Positions 54,822 to 63,794 of a DNA stretch of 64,000 nt are shown in pieces (the first letter of the stretch is position 1; each line of letters opens with the position of its first letter). The notes beneath the pieces are model-generated. The model saw nothing but the letters and a program-made list of their open reading frames with translations. It had not been told where the DNA came from and searched no databases. The translations under genes and the position numbers were made by a program. Source of the DNA: a virus. Its lineage: Duplodnaviria > Caudoviricetes. The stretch lies in IMG/VR virus record IMGVR_UViG_3300011008_000008; one strand, written 5' to 3'.

Positions 54822-55796
54822 CTAATGTGCAGAAACATCCGCATCATGTAGAGCCATAATACTATTAAATAGTTCTTCGCCAATCAACAACTTATCTTTG
54901 TTCATAGCCTTTTCCGACTGTTTCCAAGAGCAATAAGGATGCATATGATAATAAATCATATTCAGTATATCCACTTGATCTTCGATGCTATAACTTCCAT
55001 CAAGCAAATAGAAAGCAGCCATATAAGCACCAACACAATGATGCTGATAGTAATGGCAATTGCCATCATCTATCCCTCTGCTATTGATACGAACCTTTGT
55101 TTCAAGCTTTCCTATGTCATGCAAAAAAGCAGCAGTATAAAGGTTTCGATTTGCAGGAAAAACACTGTGACATCTTTCACTTGCCATCCTGCAATGAGCA
55201 CCAAGGGTTTGAGTATGATGCTCGTTTTCTTGATCAAACTCGTCCATTGCTTTTACCAATTCATTGAATGAACGCATTGCGATTCTATTCGACGAATTAC
55301 ATAAAAAGGCAAAATGGATCTCATCAAAGCCTTCGTGGAAATGCGGAGGTTGCCAGTTCTTGTACATCTTCCGAATTACTTTTTCGGGAACTTTGCGCTC
55401 TCTGGCCTGATTGTTTTCAATGCAGACTTTATATGGGGTCATCACTGCAATACAAACCTTTTTGCATGCAATGTTTTTAAGCTCATTCAGGAAACTAACA
55501 CGCAGCTTCTTGTTTATATTAGTTGCATCGTAAATCACATGTTTACCGTTTCTCAAATCATCTTTGATCCTACGATGCAGTTCAACAAACAATTCGTTGT
55601 TATGTTCCTGGTTAGTCGCATCGCCGTACAGCTCTTTGCGCAGATCATCCGACGAATGGACTTTTGGAATATCACTTTCATTGGCCTCTTCGTGAACGAC
55701 AATATTATCGTTTTCAATATAAATATGCTTTGCCAGAGTTGATTTCCCGCTGCCACTAATTCCCATCATCATAATCATGTACGGCGTATTGCTCAT
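54822..55796 (-). CDS. Polynucleotide kinase (AAA_33) fused to an HD domain
   Basis: GISGSGKST, SSDDLR, YDATN; HH..TL..H, LHDIGK, HM and DAD motifs. Confidence 0.85.
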   Translation of the reverse strand: MSNTPYMIMMMGISGSGKSTLAKHIYIENDNIVVHEEANESDIPKVHSSDDLRKELYGDATNQEHNNELFVELHRRIKDDLRNGKHVIYDATNINKKLRVSFLNELKNIACKKVCIAVMTPYKVCIENNQARERKVPEKVIRKMYKNWQPPHFHEGFDEIHFAFLCNSSNRIAMRSFNELVKAMDEFDQENEHHTQTLGAHCRMASERCHSVFPANRNLYTAAFLHDIGKLETKVRINSRGIDDGNCHYYQHHCVGAYMAAFYLLDGSYSIEDQVDILNMIYYHMHPYCSWKQSEKAMNKDKLLIGEELFNSIMALHDADVSAH

Positions 55797-55883
55797 TCGT
55801 CTGTTTCCTCATTTCATAAAGTCGATTGCTTATTCTTATGTTTCACTCAATAAAAAAGTAGTTTTATTGATTTTAAAGTCCTC

Positions 55884-56075
55884 TTACTTAGGGGGTTTTC
55901 GAGGTTCATTTTGTCTCATATTCTGCAATTCTTTATTCCTTAATGCTAATTCTTCTCTCAGCTCCTTAACTGTTGCTGCATATTCGCAGTTTTCATTACA
56001 GTATGATTCTTTATACTGCCTACCGAGCCTTAGATAGCAATATTCATAGCACGGATTGAACATTAATTTCATCAA
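55884..56075 (-). CDS. Small hypothetical protein
   Basis: 63 aa, Cys-containing, overlaps the ligase end. Confidence 0.4.
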   Translation of the reverse strand: MMKLMFNPCYEYCYLRLGRQYKESYCNENCEYAATVKELREELALRNKELQNMRQNEPRKPPK

Positions 56076-57402
56076 CTATCAACTCCTCTGCTTCTTCAAT
56101 ATCTGGAGCATCGGAGCTATCCTTGATAATACCTTCAAGGCATTTGAAACTAAAGTTCTTATGTTTGTAAGCCGTGAAAGAAGGTTTGTTGTCAATCCTT
56201 ACTACAACACCCTCGCGCACATGAGTTTTGCCAACCGGATCAGCGCCATCATAATACGTTTCAACGCGCTCCATCAAATCATCCCATGTAGTAAAAATGA
56301 ACTTGTCAAATTCAGGAACATGCTTAACGCCCATCTTTTCACATTCCATTTTTACCTGCTCCCAAGGAAGCTCTACCATGTATCCATCTTCATTCATCAT
56401 GGTCATGCGATAGACATAGCAATCGTTTTGTCCCCTATCACATCCATAAGAGAAGATTGTTTCATCTCCGTACTGCTTCGAGAATGCCTTATCCTTAACT
56501 AAGCTGTTTTTGCACCTACCCATAATGGTCGTATTATCATCGACCCAGCCGACGATCTCATAAAAAACTTCCATTCCCTTGGGAAGTCTTTCTTTGAACA
56601 GGTTATGATACTTTTCTCGGAATGCGTTGTTGCCATAGTATCCGCCATCATAATTCTTGAGTGTAGTCCTGCGCGTTCCACTAATAAACTTATATGTACG
56701 CTTCTCTGCTGGGCTGATTCTAAAAATCTTCTGAAGGATATTGCGCTTCGGCTTTATAACTTCAATTGTATTAGCTGTCCTTGCACTTGTACCATGCATC
56801 TTCAGCGTTATATAACAGGTGTCTCCTGGCTTAAAAGCACCCTCGTTATACGCGAGCTGGGCAGTATCAATATGTTCAATGAAGAATGGATAACTTTCCT
56901 TTGCCTCATCCTTGCGCTTCCGGGTTTTGCTTACATCATTATCGGTATGTCGCGCATTGTTGCGCTTGGGAATATACTTCCTACAAATCTCATGGCCGTT
57001 AAGCTCTGTGATCTGCATCCCATCTTCAAGCTTATCAATATCCGTGTATTTTGCGAGATATTCAATGGGTAGCGCCAGGCCATCGCTCTTTTCTCCGCGA
57101 AGTTTCAGGGCAATGATATTACGCTTATTAGGATCGAGATAGCCGCCTACATTGTTGCCATTTTCATCCTTCTTGCGCACAAGATTATTGTCGTTGGCAA
57201 ATTCCTCACTGAGTTGGCCATCAACCGGAAAATAAATAATGCGCTGTCCAATATGATAGCTCATGTCAACAATTACATTATTGCCAAATATTGTTGCACA
57301 TTGCAGCCTATCCGCGTTGCTATGTTTATGTATTTCTCTTATTGTGGTGATGTACGCGCTGTACATTCTTTGGCCTCCTTCGCTTTGTCTTTGTAACATC
57401 AT
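56044..57402 (-). CDS. ATP-dependent RNA ligase (DRB0094/Rnl-like)
   Basis: N-terminal OB domain (H.NADRL, KLRGEKSDG), motif I TLKMHGTS, FYEIVG, REGVVVR and YKHK. Confidence 0.8.
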   Translation of the reverse strand: MMLQRQSEGGQRMYSAYITTIREIHKHSNADRLQCATIFGNNVIVDMSYHIGQRIIYFPVDGQLSEEFANDNNLVRKKDENGNNVGGYLDPNKRNIIALKLRGEKSDGLALPIEYLAKYTDIDKLEDGMQITELNGHEICRKYIPKRNNARHTDNDVSKTRKRKDEAKESYPFFIEHIDTAQLAYNEGAFKPGDTCYITLKMHGTSARTANTIEVIKPKRNILQKIFRISPAEKRTYKFISGTRRTTLKNYDGGYYGNNAFREKYHNLFKERLPKGMEVFYEIVGWVDDNTTIMGRCKNSLVKDKAFSKQYGDETIFSYGCDRGQNDCYVYRMTMMNEDGYMVELPWEQVKMECEKMGVKHVPEFDKFIFTTWDDLMERVETYYDGADPVGKTHVREGVVVRIDNKPSFTAYKHKNFSFKCLEGIIKDSSDAPDIEEAEELIVDEINVQSVL

Positions 57403-57571
57403 TACTTTTTTGTCTTATTTTATCAGGCAAAGAATAAAGAATAGGTTTACTCTCAAAATAACAACAAGGGCATCGATATAGTTCATAGTTCCTTCCATTC
57501 ATAAACCTAAGCACATGATGCATGGGCAAATCGCATTTCTTGCAGAACATAATCACGATCTCCTTTGTCAA
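57326..57571 (-). CDS. Small zinc-ribbon protein
   Basis: CKKC..CPCC; first gene after the promoter. Confidence 0.45.
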   Translation of the reverse strand: MTKEIVIMFCKKCDLPMHHVLRFMNGRNYELYRCPCCYFESKPILYSLPDKIRQKSNDVTKTKRRRPKNVQRVHHHNKRNT

Positions 57572-57582
57572 TTTACAGATTG

Positions 57583-57628
57583 ATTATACCACATAATATA
57601 GGTAATGTCAATACTTTTTTGTCTTATT
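57583..57628 (-). promoter_or_regulatory. Consensus promoter with AATAAGACAAAAAAGTA box
   Basis: TTGACA (57611-57606), 17 bp, TATAAT (57588-57583); a further copy of the box at 57403-57419. Confidence 0.8.
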
Positions 57629-57983
57629 ATCTACGAAAATTTTTCTGTTCCTCTACAAACTCTACTCCACATTTAGGACAATAGCATGCGTTGATGAGAT
57701 CAAACTGTCCATATGGCTTTTCTGCATTGGATGAATATAACAGGCAATTACATTTTTCACACCTAATACTGGTGACATTGCCATATTTAATCACTCGCTT
57801 TATTGCTCTCCCTCGAATATCATTCTTCCCTATCAAAAGCTGGTATGCTTCTCTGATTTCTCCCTTGCGAGTCAGCCATTGTAACCAGGCATTACAATCA
57901 GAGCAATACAGCCCGGTTCTGGTTCCGGACTGCTGTACTCTTAAATGATTGCTGCCACATTTATCGCAACTTGTTTTAATCAT
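57627..57983 (-). CDS. Double zinc-ribbon hypothetical protein
   Basis: Four CxxC pairs in 118 aa. Confidence 0.6.
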   Translation of the reverse strand: MIKTSCDKCGSNHLRVQQSGTRTGLYCSDCNAWLQWLTRKGEIREAYQLLIGKNDIRGRAIKRVIKYGNVTSIRCEKCNCLLYSSNAEKPYGQFDLINACYCPKCGVEFVEEQKNFRR

Positions 57984-59067
57984 TGCTTTCCCTCATTGTT
58001 TGTCTCCATTTTTCAAATGACAATTCATTGTCTTTGATATTAGTTCCATTTGAACAGATGTAATCATTAACCTGGTAAACAAGGCGTTCTACTAATTCCA
58101 TACAAGGCGATTCTGGCAAATCTGTATGTTGTTTAGAATATTCAAGCTTGTTTTCAAAAGAACTAACCATTTCATAAAACGCTTGAATTGGCTGGTCATT
58201 ATCATCAAGATATTTACCATTCCTTATATCCATTAACAGTTCATGATCTTTTTCTCGATATGTGACAATTTCGCCATTGTCTAAAATATCAAAACACATT
58301 AAGTATAATCTAACCAAATGCATCATGTGCTTTGCAATCTTATTGTGCTCTATTGCGTTTTCATTTCTTCGCCCCATTGTCTTATACGACCTAATAATGG
58401 ATTGCATCTCCGAGATCATATCTTTATAATCTCTAAGAGGATAATGCCTAAGAACAACATCCATAAAGATTTCAGTGTTATATCCTTCATGAACAGCCTG
58501 ATCTATATATAATCTAATAGCATCTTCCGGCATGTCGAAATATCTACGCCTAAAATCTATCTGCGCACTTTGAATACTTCTCAGAATAAACTGTTCTTCT
58601 CTTTCTTGACTTGCTGTTCTTGATGCTTTATTTTCAAGCCTACGCAGTTGAGAATTTGCATAACCGCCAAATGAATTAATTGCTTTCTTTGATAAAAAGA
58701 TATGACTATTATCAATAATCATTTTACCAATATCATTGAGATAAAGATAATGTTCAGGTTTCAATCCAAGTAATTCAATCGTATTTGGATTACATGAACA
58801 AAACAACTTGACAATCTTTTCAAAAGAACAAATCGCCGTATCCGTTTCCAGATCAACTGATTGCTCAAACTGATTGCCCGTAATTATTTTATCCTTTGTA
58901 TTCGTGGCAATCCCTCTGATGTCAAGGTCACTTGTTTCTATATCGGTTCCATAGGCATGACTTCCGCCTACACTGAGCAACACAATGTTGTTGCCGAGTT
59001 CTGGCCGAGTTGATAAGAAGTCATATGGCTCCGATGCTACCGAACGCAGGATTTGATCTGTATTCAT
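57976..59067 (-). CDS. Predicted nucleotidyltransferase (RlaP/YcgL-like, pol-beta fold)
   Basis: GGSHAYGT..SDLDIRG, NPNTIE and KHMMHLVRL motifs; start likely MNTDQ at 59067. Confidence 0.8.
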   Translation of the reverse strand: MNTDQILRSVASEPYDFLSTRPELGNNIVLLSVGGSHAYGTDIETSDLDIRGIATNTKDKIITGNQFEQSVDLETDTAICSFEKIVKLFCSCNPNTIELLGLKPEHYLYLNDIGKMIIDNSHIFLSKKAINSFGGYANSQLRRLENKASRTASQEREEQFILRSIQSAQIDFRRRYFDMPEDAIRLYIDQAVHEGYNTEIFMDVVLRHYPLRDYKDMISEMQSIIRSYKTMGRRNENAIEHNKIAKHMMHLVRLYLMCFDILDNGEIVTYREKDHELLMDIRNGKYLDDNDQPIQAFYEMVSSFENKLEYSKQHTDLPESPCMELVERLVYQVNDYICSNGTNIKDNELSFEKWRQTMRESND

Positions 59068-59068
59068 G

Positions 59069-59353
59069 TTAGTCACTCTCCTTCGATTTATAGAGCCGTT
59101 CAAGGGCCATTTCAAAAGCCCCGATACCAGAGAAACAACTACATACTTTCAGGTTATCAAATAAATAAGGCATAGCATCATATAGATTCTCAAATATCTT
59201 TTCAAGCACACCAACACAGATTGAGTTTCCCGCTTGTTTATATAGTTGGCTGTTGCTTACCCCAGCATTCTTTGCCCTATCAAATGCCCAATCCGGGAAA
59301 TCCATCAATCTCCAACATTCCCGTGGGGTAAGTTTCCTAATTCTGTATTCCAT
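59069..59353 (-). CDS. C5 cytosine methyltransferase small subunit (motifs IX-X-I)
   Basis: RKLTPRECWRLMDF (IX), QLYKQAGNSI (X), then FSGIGAFE (motif I) at the C-terminus. Confidence 0.85.
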   Translation of the reverse strand: MEYRIRKLTPRECWRLMDFPDWAFDRAKNAGVSNSQLYKQAGNSICVGVLEKIFENLYDAMPYLFDNLKVCSCFSGIGAFEMALERLYKSKESD

Positions 59354-60350
59354 TATTGCAACTCGCACCTTTCTCAAATATGCAATTAATAATTATAATT
59401 GGTTGCCTTGCTCCGCCCGCTGGATTTGAAACTAAGGTCGGTGATAGTCCATTAGGATCATAAACCCTATATGCAGTAGGACTGTCCCATACTTTTGACT
59501 TAGCTATATTACCTATTTCCATTATTGTCTTTTCTACTTTTACATTTCTCATACACAACAATCAGCGGCAATCTGCCCCCCCCCGCCACAGGTATTCAAC
59601 GTTGGAGAAACACCCTGGTCATTATACACTCTGTTTACAGATGGATTGTCCCAAGCGCTTTTCTTTGCCAAACTTCCAATCTGTATTACTTTACTAATAC
59701 CGTTCAATTACTAATTGTCTCCTGTGCTTTTTTATGTATTCTTCAAAGCTGGTTCCTTTTGCGTAGTTTGCATCAATACAGTAGGAGGTTTTATTACATA
59801 ACTCATATCTATAATCATGATATTGGTCTTTACTCCCAGCGATGCTGTCAGAGTAGGAGCCACTCCCCCCCCCACTCGCAGAATACACTACATTGGATTG
59901 ATGCTTGCCAGTTCCTTTATCAATGAATCCAATTTCATTTACCGATTTCATCTAAGACTCCATCATCTAATATTTCAAGTATTAAGTTGTCTTTCGTAAC
60001 AGTTGTCAAAGAATTTGTGTACCCCCCCCCTAATATTCCCTGGTTCTAATCGCTGGCGATTATCTTCTCCTCGCCCGCGCATGGCAACGCATATTTGCTT
60101 TAGCAAAACGATCATATTATTATTCATATCCGGTTTCAATTACTCCGTTCATTGGTTGATTTCCAAATCCTTTATAATCTCTTGCAAGACAAGTATTTGC
60201 AATATTTGAAACCCCATTAAATCTACCACACTGTTCAGAAAATAAACCAGTTACTTGCTTTCTATCAAGGTGTCCCATCTGTGATTTACATCCAGGCTTC
60301 CTCGCCCCCCCCGCGAACGGTGTGCGAGGTTTCGTTTTCAAGCTTGCCAC
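59337..60350 (-). other. Array of overlapping TRD-like mini-ORFs of the C5 methyltransferase, four with G8/G9 tracts
   Basis: Modules such as RVY..G.SPTL..GGG, ANTCLARDYKG, TNSLTTVTKDN and SYCIDANYAKG in staggered frames; + strand C runs at 59576-59584, 59865-59873, 60022-60030 and 60305-60312. Confidence 0.7.
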
Positions 60351-61056
60351 TCAAAACAAGTTCTTCGATTAGCTCTTTTGCCCTTGGAGTATTAATATAA
60401 TACTTCTCGTCAACGCTATTCTCAAGAACGTCACTCATTCGCACGTCGCTTTCAATCGGCTCCGGAAACTTGAATAATCCATTGTCAATATCTTTGCGAA
60501 TAATAATCACATAAACGCGCTCTCTGTTTTGAGGAATCTCATAATCTTTTGCATTGAGCACTTTATAATATGTATTATATCCATATTCATTTAGTTCATC
60601 TATAAACATTTGGAATGTTTGTTTGAACTTCTTGCCTACAATGTTTTTCACATTCTCATAGATTGCCCATTTGGGCTTGTTGGCACGAATCAAGCGCAGC
60701 CATTCTACAAGTAACGAACTTCGTGTTTTATCAAGAGACCCGTTGCTACACTTAGGACAACGATCTCTTTGATCAAAATGAACAGTCAAAGGATTATACT
60801 CATAACCGCATTTTCTACACACCCATCTGCTACCGCTTTGTTTACCGGCAATTGAAAAGTCCTGACATGGTGAACCTCCACAAATCATATTAAAGTAATT
60901 CATATTGTCAGCATTGACTTTTGTGATATCACCTAAGTTCTTATCCGGAGATTCATCATATATTGCGCAATAACTCTTTGTCGCAAACTTATCAAGTTCG
61001 CAAAAATTTACCAGTTCAAATCCTCTGTTTTTTGAATCGAAACTTTTATTTTCCAA
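60286..61056 (-). CDS. C5 cytosine methyltransferase catalytic subunit (motifs II-VIII, lacks motif I)
   Basis: FCELDK, GDITKV, GGSPCQDFS, YENVKN and PQNRERVY; zinc-ribbon insert CRKC..CPKC. Confidence 0.9.
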   Translation of the reverse strand: MENKSFDSKNRGFELVNFCELDKFATKSYCAIYDESPDKNLGDITKVNADNMNYFNMICGGSPCQDFSIAGKQSGSRWVCRKCGYEYNPLTVHFDQRDRCPKCSNGSLDKTRSSLLVEWLRLIRANKPKWAIYENVKNIVGKKFKQTFQMFIDELNEYGYNTYYKVLNAKDYEIPQNRERVYVIIIRKDIDNGLFKFPEPIESDVRMSDVLENSVDEKYYINTPRAKELIEELVLSGKLENETSHTVRGGGEEAWM

Positions 61057-61112
61057 AGTTAGTATTCCTTCCTAAAATACAGCGTATTTAAAAACACAAT
61101 CTTTATGATTTG

Positions 61113-61169
61113 AACTTTTATCATTCTGGAAGCCCTCTATTTTAGATTGTTTTTAGAATGATAAAAGTT
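61113..61169. repeat. 15-bp perfect inverted repeat upstream of the methyltransferase
   Basis: AACTTTTATCATTCT (61113-61127) / AGAATGATAAAAGTT (61155-61169). Confidence 0.8.
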
Positions 61170-61174
61170 TCGTT

Positions 61175-62374
61175 TTATTCATACCTATATAGCCCAGGCA
61201 TGATCTCATTACACATGTCAAAGACTTTGCCCATGCCTAAACCTTCCTTGCTTGGAACCCAGATTTTCTTCGGATTCCAATTAATCCATCCCATTTCATC
61301 CGGCTCCATACTTGCCGTTGGATCGTAAGCAGGATTATCTACCCATTGTCCACCACCAATACAATACTCATATTGTCTCGGATGTGTTCTTGCAAGCATT
61401 TGGAATCTTGTTTCTCCCTTTTCAAGATGAAAACCAAATCCACAATACACACATCCTGTCCTTTGACATCCACTGCATTTCCATTTACAACCATTCGGCA
61501 TTCCTGCGCCATTGGGTATAACAATTTCACCCTGCTTATTGACAATATTAATCGTGCCATATGGTTCAGCGATCTCTATATTTTTTAGCTTGATATACGT
61601 TAGAATATCCTGCTCTGTCCAAAATGACATCGGTTGACTTGTGGCATCATTACTATTAAAAGCATTGCATCCGTGCTTTATCCACGCCTGTTTTCTCATG
61701 CGACTTTCTTCTGCCAATGTTCCAATATATGGTCTTGCTCCAGTATCCTTCTGATACCTTTTAACAACATTCTTCTTCATAATATTGCAACAATAATGAG
61801 AAATCATTACGGGCAATTCGCGGGCGATAGGTAGCCATTTTTCTTTGTTGAATATTGTATTCTCGCCTAATTGCTCTTTTACATTGCATAAACAAGCTCT
61901 GCGCCAGTTATGCCACTTTCCTTTCGAGGCTTGATCGCCCCCCCCGCCGTTATGTGTGACTGGTTTAATTCTTCGTGCATAGTAAATACACTCAGCTGTT
62001 TCTTTACTGATCAGCGGATAACCATACTCAGAGAGTGTTTGCTTGAAATTTTTCTTAGGATATAGCGTAATTACATTATCAAATTTCTTTACAAACCTCT
62101 GCAATGCTGGAAATTCAAGACCGGTATTTGAAAATACTGCAGGAACACCGGGAAACAACGATCTCACAAGATATAATAAAACCGTACTATCTTTCCCTCC
62201 AGAAAAACTAACATATACATTCCCATTGTAATGATGATACCATTCTATTATTCTTGCCGCCGTTATACCGATCTTACGTTCAAGTGGTAATGCTTGTAGT
62301 TCCTTTAATCGCTCTGCATCGTGTATCAATCCATCAGCTGATATCCTATCGACTTGATCATCAGTTAATATCAA
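61175..62374 (-). CDS. PAPS-reductase-family (PP-loop) protein
   Basis: SFSGGKDS, TGLEF, CC..MKK, ES..R and RTGCVYCGFG; start likely TTG at 62374 after GGAGG. Confidence 0.85.
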   Translation of the reverse strand: MILTDDQVDRISADGLIHDAERLKELQALPLERKIGITAARIIEWYHHYNGNVYVSFSGGKDSTVLLYLVRSLFPGVPAVFSNTGLEFPALQRFVKKFDNVITLYPKKNFKQTLSEYGYPLISKETAECIYYARRIKPVTHNGGGGDQASKGKWHNWRRACLCNVKEQLGENTIFNKEKWLPIARELPVMISHYCCNIMKKNVVKRYQKDTGARPYIGTLAEESRMRKQAWIKHGCNAFNSNDATSQPMSFWTEQDILTYIKLKNIEIAEPYGTINIVNKQGEIVIPNGAGMPNGCKWKCSGCQRTGCVYCGFGFHLEKGETRFQMLARTHPRQYEYCIGGGQWVDNPAYDPTASMEPDEMGWINWNPKKIWVPSKEGLGMGKVFDMCNEIMPGLYRYE

Positions 62375-62834
62375 TTTTTGTATTCCCTCCAACTTTATTA
62401 TCTTTATATATAACAACCATACTTGGAAACGGTGCTGAATTGTTACTATTGCCAAACTTCAATCTACCACGTACAAATCTAATTTCTGCTTTACCCAATA
62501 TGTAATCATGAAACCATTTTGTATCTGTTCTCGCTGGCAATAACATAACAATCAACTGCCCACGCAAGCTTTCCTCATATGCCTTTTTTACCCACAAGCC
62601 AATTTCTCTGCCATAGGGAGGATTACAGAATACCCCCCCCGCAGGAACAACCCAGGGCTGAGATAGGCCATCAATCTCTTTTGAATAGTAATTCACACAC
62701 TTATGATTTGTTGAATCTGCCGCAGCATCCAGCGTAAAATGGAACTCTGCATTTAGTTCATCGAAAAAATCTTGTGGTGTAGCCCACTGATCCGTTTTGC
62801 TGGAAAACATCACATCTGTATTTATAGCCATCAC
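62361..62834 (-). CDS. Phage DNA N6-adenine methyltransferase (second paralog)
   Basis: QWATPQ, FTLDAAA, FCNPPY, LLPARTDT and GRLKF motifs. Confidence 0.9.
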   Translation of the reverse strand: MMAINTDVMFSSKTDQWATPQDFFDELNAEFHFTLDAAADSTNHKCVNYYSKEIDGLSQPWVVPAGGVFCNPPYGREIGLWVKKAYEESLRGQLIVMLLPARTDTKWFHDYILGKAEIRFVRGRLKFGNSNNSAPFPSMVVIYKDNKVGGNTKIDIN

Positions 62835-62840
62835 TCCTGA

Positions 62841-63794
62841 TTATTCAACTTTAACACCTATAAACTCCAATGCCTCTTTCATGCCAAGCCCCCCCTGTGA
62901 CCAAGGCCGCATACAATAATCCCATAGTTTCGGATGTGTTTGCTTTAGTCTTTGAAACCTATTTGGTTCTTTTTCTCTATGACAGCCAAATCCGCAGAAA
63001 ACACAGCCCGTCCTATCACATCCAGTAGTACAAAATCTCCCGTCATTGTCTTGAACAATATCCCCATAAACCGAAGCATAATTAAGATTATATCGCTTTA
63101 TATATTCGAGTACGTCTTGCTCAGTCCAGAATGACATAGGTTGTGAAGTTGGCCTAATCCCGTCAAAAGCATTACAACCTTTCTTGCGCCACTCTGTTTT
63201 GCGAAGCTGACTTTCGCAAGCCATAGTTGCAATAATCGGGTGCAAACCTGTTTCTTTTTCAAACTTCTTAGCGGGTTTCTTTTTCATAATATTACAGCAC
63301 TTATGGCTTATTGGAATATCACTGTCCCTTAATTCCTTCCACTTCGCCATAGAAAACCTGTTTTTATACTTCTTGTTATACTCGCTGTTTGGATCAAATC
63401 TGGCAACCGTATATCCATCCGGCTTTTGCCTGGACTCATATATTTTCTGTGCGACCTCTTTGCTGATCAAAGGATAGCCATATGTTTGAATGACTTTCCT
63501 AAAGCTCATTTCCGGGGTTAGCCGTATAACATTTGGAACCGTCTTTACAAACTGCCTTATCTCTGGATATTCAAGCCCGGTATCTATAAAAACTGCCGGA
63601 ATATCTGGATTAATCTTTCTAACAATATCAAGCAGAACTGTACTATCCTTACCTCCACTAAAGCTAACATAGACTTGGTTTTCATATCTTGCACAATATT
63701 CAATAATTCTCGTTTGTGTTCTAAGTATCTTTTGCCCCAATGACCATGACTGCATGATCTTCAAATCTTCGTTCGTAAATTTCACACCGACCAC
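62841..63794 (-). CDS. PAPS-reductase-family (PP-loop) protein (second paralog)
   Basis: SFSGGKDS, DTGLEYP, CC.IMKK and RTGCVFCGFG. Confidence 0.88.
   Translation of the reverse strand: MVGVKFTNEDLKIMQSWSLGQKILRTQTRIIEYCARYENQVYVSFSGGKDSTVLLDIVRKINPDIPAVFIDTGLEYPEIRQFVKTVPNVIRLTPEMSFRKVIQTYGYPLISKEVAQKIYESRQKPDGYTVARFDPNSEYNKKYKNRFSMAKWKELRDSDIPISHKCCNIMKKKPAKKFEKETGLHPIIATMACESQLRKTEWRKKGCNAFDGIRPTSQPMSFWTEQDVLEYIKRYNLNYASVYGDIVQDNDGRFCTTGCDRTGCVFCGFGCHREKEPNRFQRLKQTHPKLWDYCMRPWSQGGLGMKEALEFIGVKVE

Follow-up and report, generated by a model that had tools for sequence, protein, structure and literature searches.

The window analyzed here, a stretch of 64,000 nucleotides from the Caudoviricetes record IMGVR_UViG_3300011008_000008 of IMG/VR, is part of a 153-kb phage contig from gut or rumen, obtained by short-read metagenome assembly (ENA ERZ3810914 NODE_12, 17x coverage). 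On its minus strand, which also carries the modules and G tracts described below, two open reading frames (ORFs) with the motifs of a C5-cytosine methyltransferase (C5-MTase) flank a ~1-kb array of short, frame-staggered modules that resemble target-recognition domains (TRDs). An earlier account, made from the letters alone and called here the sequence-only reading, had proposed that runs of G within this array switch individual specificity modules. We compared the locus with related loci, designated by numbers with the prefix L, and weighed this proposal against its alternatives.

The first of the two flanking genes, alpha (60286–61056, TTG start), was taken from the ORF list and carries motifs II–VIII together with a Cys4 zinc-ribbon insert. 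A Pfam profile search identified it as a C5-cytosine MTase core (PF00145, E 2e-45). In its present state, with eight Gs in the first tract of the array, alpha stops 5 codons past that tract and comprises 256 aa without a TRD. The second gene, beta (59069–59353), encodes 94 residues bearing motifs IX and X followed by a C-terminal motif I (FSGIGAF); it matches PF00145 at profile positions 273–322 (E 9e-14) and is conserved in 8 relatives. The C5-MTase motifs could all be read directly in the window, as FSGIGAF, GGSPCQDFS, YENVKN, QNRERVY, RKLTPRECWRLMDF and AGNSI. Alpha and beta are two ORFs, each with its own start, and the sequence-only reading had correctly placed the modules between two methyltransferase subunits; these are not the halves of an ordinary gene, but pieces of a circularly permuted one, as motif I stands at the end of beta. 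In the canonical relative L010, residues 1–23 align to the beta tail and residues 18–66 to the alpha N-terminus. Because the N-terminus of L010 aligns in turn to the tail of beta and the start of alpha, the window enzyme is predicted to be both split and circularly permuted, with motifs II–VIII in alpha, motifs IX, X and I in beta, and motif X ahead of motif I.

Single-chain forms of the same permutation are found in L009, L006, L096 and L164. A structural model of the single-chain relative L009, which does not represent the window chains themselves, had a predicted template modeling score (pTM) of 0.75 and catalytic-domain predicted local distance difference test (pLDDT) values of 85–98, and its best PDB match was M.HhaI (E 3e-19), in keeping with an M.HhaI-like fold. 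Like the permuted enzymes M.BssHII and M.Alw26I, the window enzyme has motif X ahead of motif I. In contrast to these, its break lies between motifs I and II, with a further split before motif IX, whereas every natural permuted C5-MTase known to a 2018 survey breaks in the variable region (PMC5944983). Engineered fragments of the M.MpeI permutant cp62, one comprising TRD-IX-X-I-II and the other III–VIII, assemble into an active enzyme (PMC5944983). The arrangement in the window therefore appears plausible but unusual, since an engineered split permutant is active, yet the known natural break points differ (PMC5944983).

Searches of viral, metagenome and genome collections returned no relative with more than 71% core identity; closer array relatives, L204–L209, were reached through exact-protein look-ups. 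A DNA search of cultured phages yielded only short, distant matches to ordinary MTases, and Pfam recognized neither the isolated TRD modules nor the 33-residue motif-I tail. The zinc-ribbon-like insert of alpha (60730–60850, CRKC...CPKC) lies between motifs IV and VI; the closest relatives share it, L008 and L009 lack it, and its Pfam matches are weak (Zn_ribbon_8, HypA). In Bacillus phage Deep Blue (L202, NC_031056.1 74203–76485) two canonical C5-MTase genes abut with zero gap, and window beta (IX-X-I) aligns across the boundary between them. The permutation might plausibly have arisen from such tandem C5-MTase genes via duplication and truncation.

Three-frame translation of the ~1 kb between alpha and beta revealed seven TRD-like modules, designated 0, A, B, C, D, E and F, in staggered frames, in agreement with the roughly seven short modules that the sequence-only reading had described between the MTase ORFs. 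Its four G tracts were likewise recovered, as C runs on the plus strand with lengths of 9, 9, 9 and 8, and every product it had predicted for a given tract length was reproduced by three-frame translation with simulated tract lengths. Tract 1 (G8, 60305–60312) lies at the core–TRD junction and is predicted to act as a three-way switch between module 0, module A and none: in silico, the core reads into module 0 at G9 or G6 and into A at G7 or G10, and at G8 it meets a stop after 5 codons. Module 0 (RGSLDVNHRWDTLIESK, 60254–60304) is a short TRD that overlaps the linker of A in a different frame and corresponds to the in-frame first TRD of the continuous relatives L007 and L096. Module A (..NTCLARDYKGFGNQPMNGVIE, 60123–60304), read from the core at G7 or G10, has a ratio of nonsynonymous to synonymous differences per site (pN/pS) of 0.33 over 8 relatives. 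The ATG of the module B mini-ORF (AMRGR..QRLEP..NSLTTVTKDNLILE, 59935–60127) overlaps the stop of A, and the module is broken by tract 2 (G9, 60022–60030), a predicted on/off switch for which G8 is the on state.

The module C mini-ORF (59732–59951) begins with GGAG, 6 nt and an ATG. Its head runs up to tract 3 and its tail (VAPTLTASLGVKTNIMIID) lies in a different frame, with pN/pS values of 0.30 and 0.29, respectively. At tract 3 (G9, 59865–59873), G8 yields C, the present G9 links the C head to D, and neither product arises at other lengths. Module D (CIDANYAKG..RRQLVIE, 59694–59807) is consequently now found in an 85-aa C-head/D fusion ORF spanning 59694–59951. The module E mini-ORF (..VNRVYNDQGVSPTLNTCGGGG / RLPLIVVYE, 59509–59707) is broken by tract 4 (G9, 59576–59584), a predicted on/off switch that is again on at G8. 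Module F (59337–59561, ATG at 59522) is an intact mini-ORF; relative to L204, insertions of 19 nt on the E side and of 22 nt (9 + 13) on the beta side set it apart from its neighbors.

At both three-way switches, tracts 1 and 3, the module that is not chosen is read in another frame as the linker to the next module. The modules belong to distinct TRD sequence types, and the F type is widespread in canonical MTases. As in contingency loci, repeats lie inside coding sequence and their length sets the frame. No set of tract lengths turns the array into one ORF, so the form typical of the Bacillus phage enzyme SPR, with several TRDs in one polypeptide, is absent. Among the window modules a Shine-Dalgarno site is clear ahead of C only, and independent initiation of B, E and F is suggested by the position of ATG or TTG codons and by the relatives. 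Stop-codon recoding was also considered as a means of reading through the array and was rejected, as the modules lie in different frames.

Base composition predicts ~0.2 G/C runs of at least 8 in the 64 kb, and six were seen. All seven runs of at least 7 in the window, namely these six and one G7, fall within the 3.3 kb from 59576 to 62895 and have G on the coding strand, and only 9.6% of the glycines in the long ORFs are encoded by GGG. The clustering of G tracts is thus more than chance. Across 11 genomes we counted 23 G/C runs of at least 7 in 21.8 kb of arrays versus 5 in 131.9 kb of flanks. The three window runs beyond the array are all in frame: a G8 at 61938–61945 in a PAPS-reductase-like gene (61175–62455), a G8 at 62633–62640 in a Dam-like N6-adenine MTase gene, just ahead of its NPPY motif, and a G7 at 62889–62895 in a second PAPS-reductase-like gene. 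The flanks of tract 1 (60291–60314) and of the first PAPS-reductase tract (61924–61947) are 88% identical over 24 nt (GC-G8-CGAnnAAGCCTnGA), which is above chance expectation and could reflect common origin or the copying of a tract together with its flanks.

Comparison of tract lengths across related phages, a check that the sequence-only reading had proposed, revealed near-identical genomes that differ almost only in tract length. L083, L084 and L085, from three samples of one study, are separated by 4 substitutions, and their indels are confined to four homopolymers of the array: three G tracts of G7/G6/G6, G9/G10/G7 and G6/G7/G8, each given in the order L083/L084/L085, and a C run with one additional base in L083. 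Across the three genomes tract 1 alternates between states encoding alpha-A and alpha-0. Similarly, the near-identical contigs L204–L209, from six samples, share the module order of the window, and the homologue of tract 3 is G8 in L204 and L207, in which the C head is fused to D, and G9 in L205, L206, L208 and L209, in which the product is truncated and off. Apart from this tract, L204 and L205 differ by 2 single-nucleotide polymorphisms and one T indel in 1946 nt. Between L003 and L089, which are 93% identical, 4 of 13 indels fall in array G tracts. Over 9716 nt, a single G separates the window from the ENA record of its contig; it lies in the PAPS-reductase tract, which is G8 in the window and G9 in the ENA record, where the gene is split into 155 + 201 aa. 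Over 13 relatives, tract 1 selects module 0 via G6 in three, A via G7 in five, and is off in five. The tract lengths of near-identical relatives, these three states of tract 1 and the selection described below together support slippage at G tracts as a means of switching modules on, off or into fusions, as had been proposed.

Two smaller observations accompany these comparisons. The JGI/IMG twin of the contig measures 153,239 nt and the ENA record 153,238 nt. One of the 4 substitutions in the trio above, at L083:5850 relative to L084 and L085, is a nonsense change (R to stop) in a TRD mini-ORF and amounts to a natural knock-out of one module.

Selective constraint was estimated from pN/pS with synonymous sites saturated (pS 0.65–0.93). 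Values were 0.26 for the core, 0.24 for beta and 0.16–0.33 for the modules, whose heads and tails are alike constrained on either side of the tracts, at a core-like level. Against L204, pN/pS was 0.13 for F, 0.09 for D and 0.12 for beta. Because pN/pS is low despite saturated synonymous sites, translation of each module piece in its own frame appears to be long-standing. The staggered architecture is retained across ~30% protein divergence, with start codons conserved at the module heads.

The design extends well beyond the closest relatives. Among 140 distinct related loci with a core and motifs IX–X, 41 encode these as one ORF and 99 do not. Repeats between the core and motif IX, counted as G/C runs of at least 7 or 4–6-nt repeats, were present in 68 of the 99 broken loci versus 2 of the 41 continuous genes (Fisher p 8e-13). 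At the core–TRD junction other lineages carry (GACAA)n, in L091 and L163, or (AGAGC)5-15 and (GACA)5-18, in human-gut phages, and a 10-nt difference in (GACAA)n at L091:3700 relative to L163 shifts the frame. That unlike repeat types occupy the same functional place argues for selection for switching. The array of L182 holds seven tracts in 2 kb, and L186 (NZ_JAWDIY010000002.1), from the cultured Lachnospiraceae isolate Diplocloster hominis CSJ-3, holds six G tracts (8, 9, 11, 7, 7 and 10) in 1.9 kb. L186 has the canonical motif order, with one tract inside the N-terminal catalytic part. The tetra- and pentanucleotide repeats (L091, L163, L051, L158 and ~30 human-gut loci) are read as DKTRQ or SRAEQ, and their copy number varies between relatives.

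Overall, we consider it probable that the locus is a phage contingency locus that varies DNA-methylation specificity. An operon-like TRD array would lie between the alpha and beta genes of a two-chain enzyme, with the glycine loops of four modules encoded as G8–G9 runs whose length would be altered by strand slippage during replication. Slippage at tract 1 would select the ending of alpha, which could be TRD 0, TRD A or nothing; slippage at tract 3 would select TRD C, TRD D or nothing, and tracts 2 and 4 would toggle B and E. Progeny phages would then carry unlike active TRD sets, presumably methylating unlike sequences, and the likely purpose would be bet-hedging between hosts whose restriction is blocked by methylation and hosts that attack methylated DNA. 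Slippage at the DNA level, the change in specificity, the anti-restriction role and the action in trans of unfused modules are all points that we infer.

Several observations weigh against a switchable specificity locus. In its present state the window encodes an alpha without a TRD and has B and E off; the intact modules are limited to the C-head/D fusion and F, both unattached to alpha or beta, so that, if free TRDs do not act in trans, this genome would be in an all-off state with no working enzyme. Length variation was seen between relatives, and for the window phage itself only at the neighboring PAPS-reductase tract. L002 and L004 are staggered with few or zero long tracts, and part of the stagger is hence not switchable. 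Of 8 relatives in one subgroup, 5 have a last tract that does not read in frame into beta and would leave the entire enzyme silent, and by our tally ~40% of tracts are on across genomes, near the one third expected under neutral drift. These last two points would also suit programmed slippage of RNA polymerase or the ribosome, by which every genome would make all frames and express all TRDs at a low, constant level as DNA tract length drifts neutrally, affording constant multispecificity and no bet-hedging: tract states are near random, in many genomes a tract on which beta would depend is off, and all four window tracts call for the same fix, one G fewer. In contrast, DNA lengths vary between near-identical genomes to an extent sufficient for phase variation, the 4-/5-nt repeats that take this place in other lineages are of the classic DNA-slippage type and do not make ribosomes slip, and the tract-free junctions lack a shared slippery motif. 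Furthermore, the transcriptional slippage known from bacteria involves mostly A/T runs, and no hybrid is more stable than rG:dC. Slippage at the DNA level is therefore favored over slippage at the RNA level, which we regard as unlikely, because lengths differ between near-identical genomes and 4–5-nt repeats do the same job elsewhere. A decaying pseudogene of a once-continuous multispecific MTase could account for the continuous multi-TRD genes of L006, L007, L096, L164 and L165, for L004, in which tract 1 is lost and module A contains a stop, and for the nonsense change in one L083 module. Module pN/pS nevertheless equals that of the core at saturated synonymous sites, and the stagger is kept over the divergence given above and in 99 loci, together with the start codons at module heads; because purifying selection acts on both sides of the tracts, decay is effectively ruled out, and we give it very little credence. 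Least probable of all, and hardly credible, are homopolymer sequencing or assembly errors in one continuous ORF. G8–G9 runs are error-prone, the window contig has its modest 17x coverage and some relatives come from 2–7x contigs, but 6 of the 10 frame changes in the window lie away from homopolymers, so that no set of tract lengths yields one ORF; three independent assemblies of one relative (L008 = L098 = L097, 42x and 2x coverage) agree in all four tract lengths; and the same design is present in the isolate genome L186. Sequencing error as the cause of the architecture is refuted by these non-homopolymer frame changes, agreeing assemblies and isolate genome.

The module layouts of relatives bear on whether a TRD must be fused to act. 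In L204–L209, E, F and beta are in frame as one 201-residue protein, L003, L083 and L163 have their last TRD joined to beta, and the separation in the window arises from the 19- and 22-nt insertions. It is conceivable, though we hold it below even chances, that only modules fused to alpha (0 and A) or beta (E and F in L204) work and that the free mini-ORFs (F, C/D and B in the window) are recent inactive breakage products. To our knowledge, a free TRD subunit of a C5-MTase has no precedent, and F modeled alone (AlphaFold, 41-sequence alignment) reached a pLDDT of 64, too poor for a fold search and informative neither way. A sequence search of F against the PDB found nothing, and a profile search with F picked up only the TRD of M.MpeI, weakly (E 0.44). 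In contrast, L121 and L167 have zero repeats and an alpha that ends before any TRD, followed by 4–8 intact mini-ORFs of 43–75 residues with ATG starts and either ATGA/TAATG overlaps or Shine-Dalgarno sites, and by a beta that has a strong ribosome-binding site to itself. L083 has two TRD mini-ORFs upstream of the core, next to an S-adenosylmethionine (SAM)-synthetase-like gene, and the segment is inverted in L085, which places them on the other strand. F and D are under strong purifying selection, and in the staggered clade nearly all modules begin with an ATG adjoining or overlapping the previous stop, whereas modules of continuous genes mostly do not. Short of proof, these layouts favor TRDs that may be able to work untethered. 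We would give even chances to the TRD mini-genes being free specificity subunits, the catalytic alpha/beta pair taking in trans any of several 45–85-residue TRD proteins, each with its own slippage switch, as a Type I enzyme takes HsdS. If so, the locus would encode a modular three-component C5-cytosine MTase, an organization undescribed for the enzyme class, with up to 2^n methylomes from ~1 kb of DNA.

A further TRD-like module lies past motif I at the end of beta in several relatives, behind a G5–G6 run and under strong constraint, with a pN/pS of 0.17 (L001:6696–6812, L003:1893–2003, L005:6594–6710 and others). L003 carries this post-motif-I module (..YDDYNSN.RADQ.T.GT.T...KLIE) in frame and L089 carries it out of frame, and the window is without it. 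The inverted segment that distinguishes L083 (2520–4000) from L085 is 1.48 kb long and bounded by 18-nt imperfect inverted repeats, the right arm of which falls in the first codons of the MTase core. The L083 core has an ATG start, and after inversion L085 is left without an in-frame ATG, GTG or TTG; the inversion looks like a putative invertible on/off switch of alpha. Around the window core we found no convincing inverted repeats like those of L083.

The likeness to the Bacillus phage enzymes SPR and phi3T drawn by the sequence-only reading holds for the tandem TRDs and fails for the architecture, as the enzyme here is split and permuted and its modules form separate or switchable ORFs. Like the window, M.SPRI, M.phi3TI, M.rho11sI and M.H2I combine one catalytic core with tandem TRDs between motifs VIII and IX, and in these multispecific C5-MTases each TRD is taken to give one specificity; the continuous relatives L006, L096, L164 and L165 share the SPR-type form. 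The Bacillus phage enzymes are single polypeptides of constant specificity, whereas the window has separate or switchable TRD frames in a split and permuted enzyme, with TRDs interrupted by repeats. Bacterial Type III mod phasevarions, Type I hsdS repeats and inversions, and Campylobacter poly-G genes resemble the window in that coding-sequence repeats shift the frame and alter methylation, with specificity itself altered in Type I. These bacterial phasevarions are host N6-adenine enzymes with one or two switches, whereas the present design would be a phage C5-cytosine enzyme with up to seven switches per array and a three-way TRD choice in overlapping frames. M.AquI (alpha/beta) is split in the variable region, and M.EcoHK31I has beta inside alpha in an overlapping frame; in each case the chains complement. 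Both enzymes consist of two fixed pieces with canonical motif order and no TRD array or repeats. M.AquI is cited in PMC5944983.

Among phages, poly-G contingency has been described in receptor-binding proteins of Fletchervirus (Sorensen 2021), and contingency loci in T2/T4 (bioRxiv 10.1101/2025.10.21.683753). These share hypermutable homopolymers and bet-hedging with the window and differ from it in that they concern receptor binding or single genes, with no modular specificity array. The same 2025 preprint mentions poly-G tracts in a Bordetella phage methylase gene, in passing and without further study (bioRxiv 10.1101/2025.10.21.683753). Repeat-switched bacterial MTases, multispecific phage C5-MTases, split and permuted C5-MTases, and poly-G switches in phage receptor-binding proteins are thus already known. 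A literature search, incomplete in coverage so that novelty is unproven, found no account of individually switchable TRD arrays, of a three-way choice between TRDs read in overlapping frames, or of TRDs encoded as free genes.

Phage MTases are usually seen as fixed anti-restriction tools, whereas the window enzyme seems built for frequent change of its target set through several independent switches. With the repeat-bearing design present in roughly 70 related loci of gut and rumen phages and prophages, this would be a common and so far unreported hedging route, and, if TRDs do act in trans, a categorically new element beyond the known kinds. The design makes it testable whether the recognition domain of a C5-MTase works as a separate, exchangeable subunit, and the cultured, prophage-bearing host Diplocloster hominis CSJ-3 offers a system in which to ask whether a TRD does so. 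For the engineering of methylation specificity, natural TRD cassettes able to dock on a shared core would be of use as well.

Directly downstream of beta, window positions 54822–59067 encode an RlaP-like nucleotidyltransferase, a Lar-like small protein, an RNA ligase and a kinase-like gene, which together look like an RNA-repair set. The RlaP-like gene adjoins beta downstream in L204 too.

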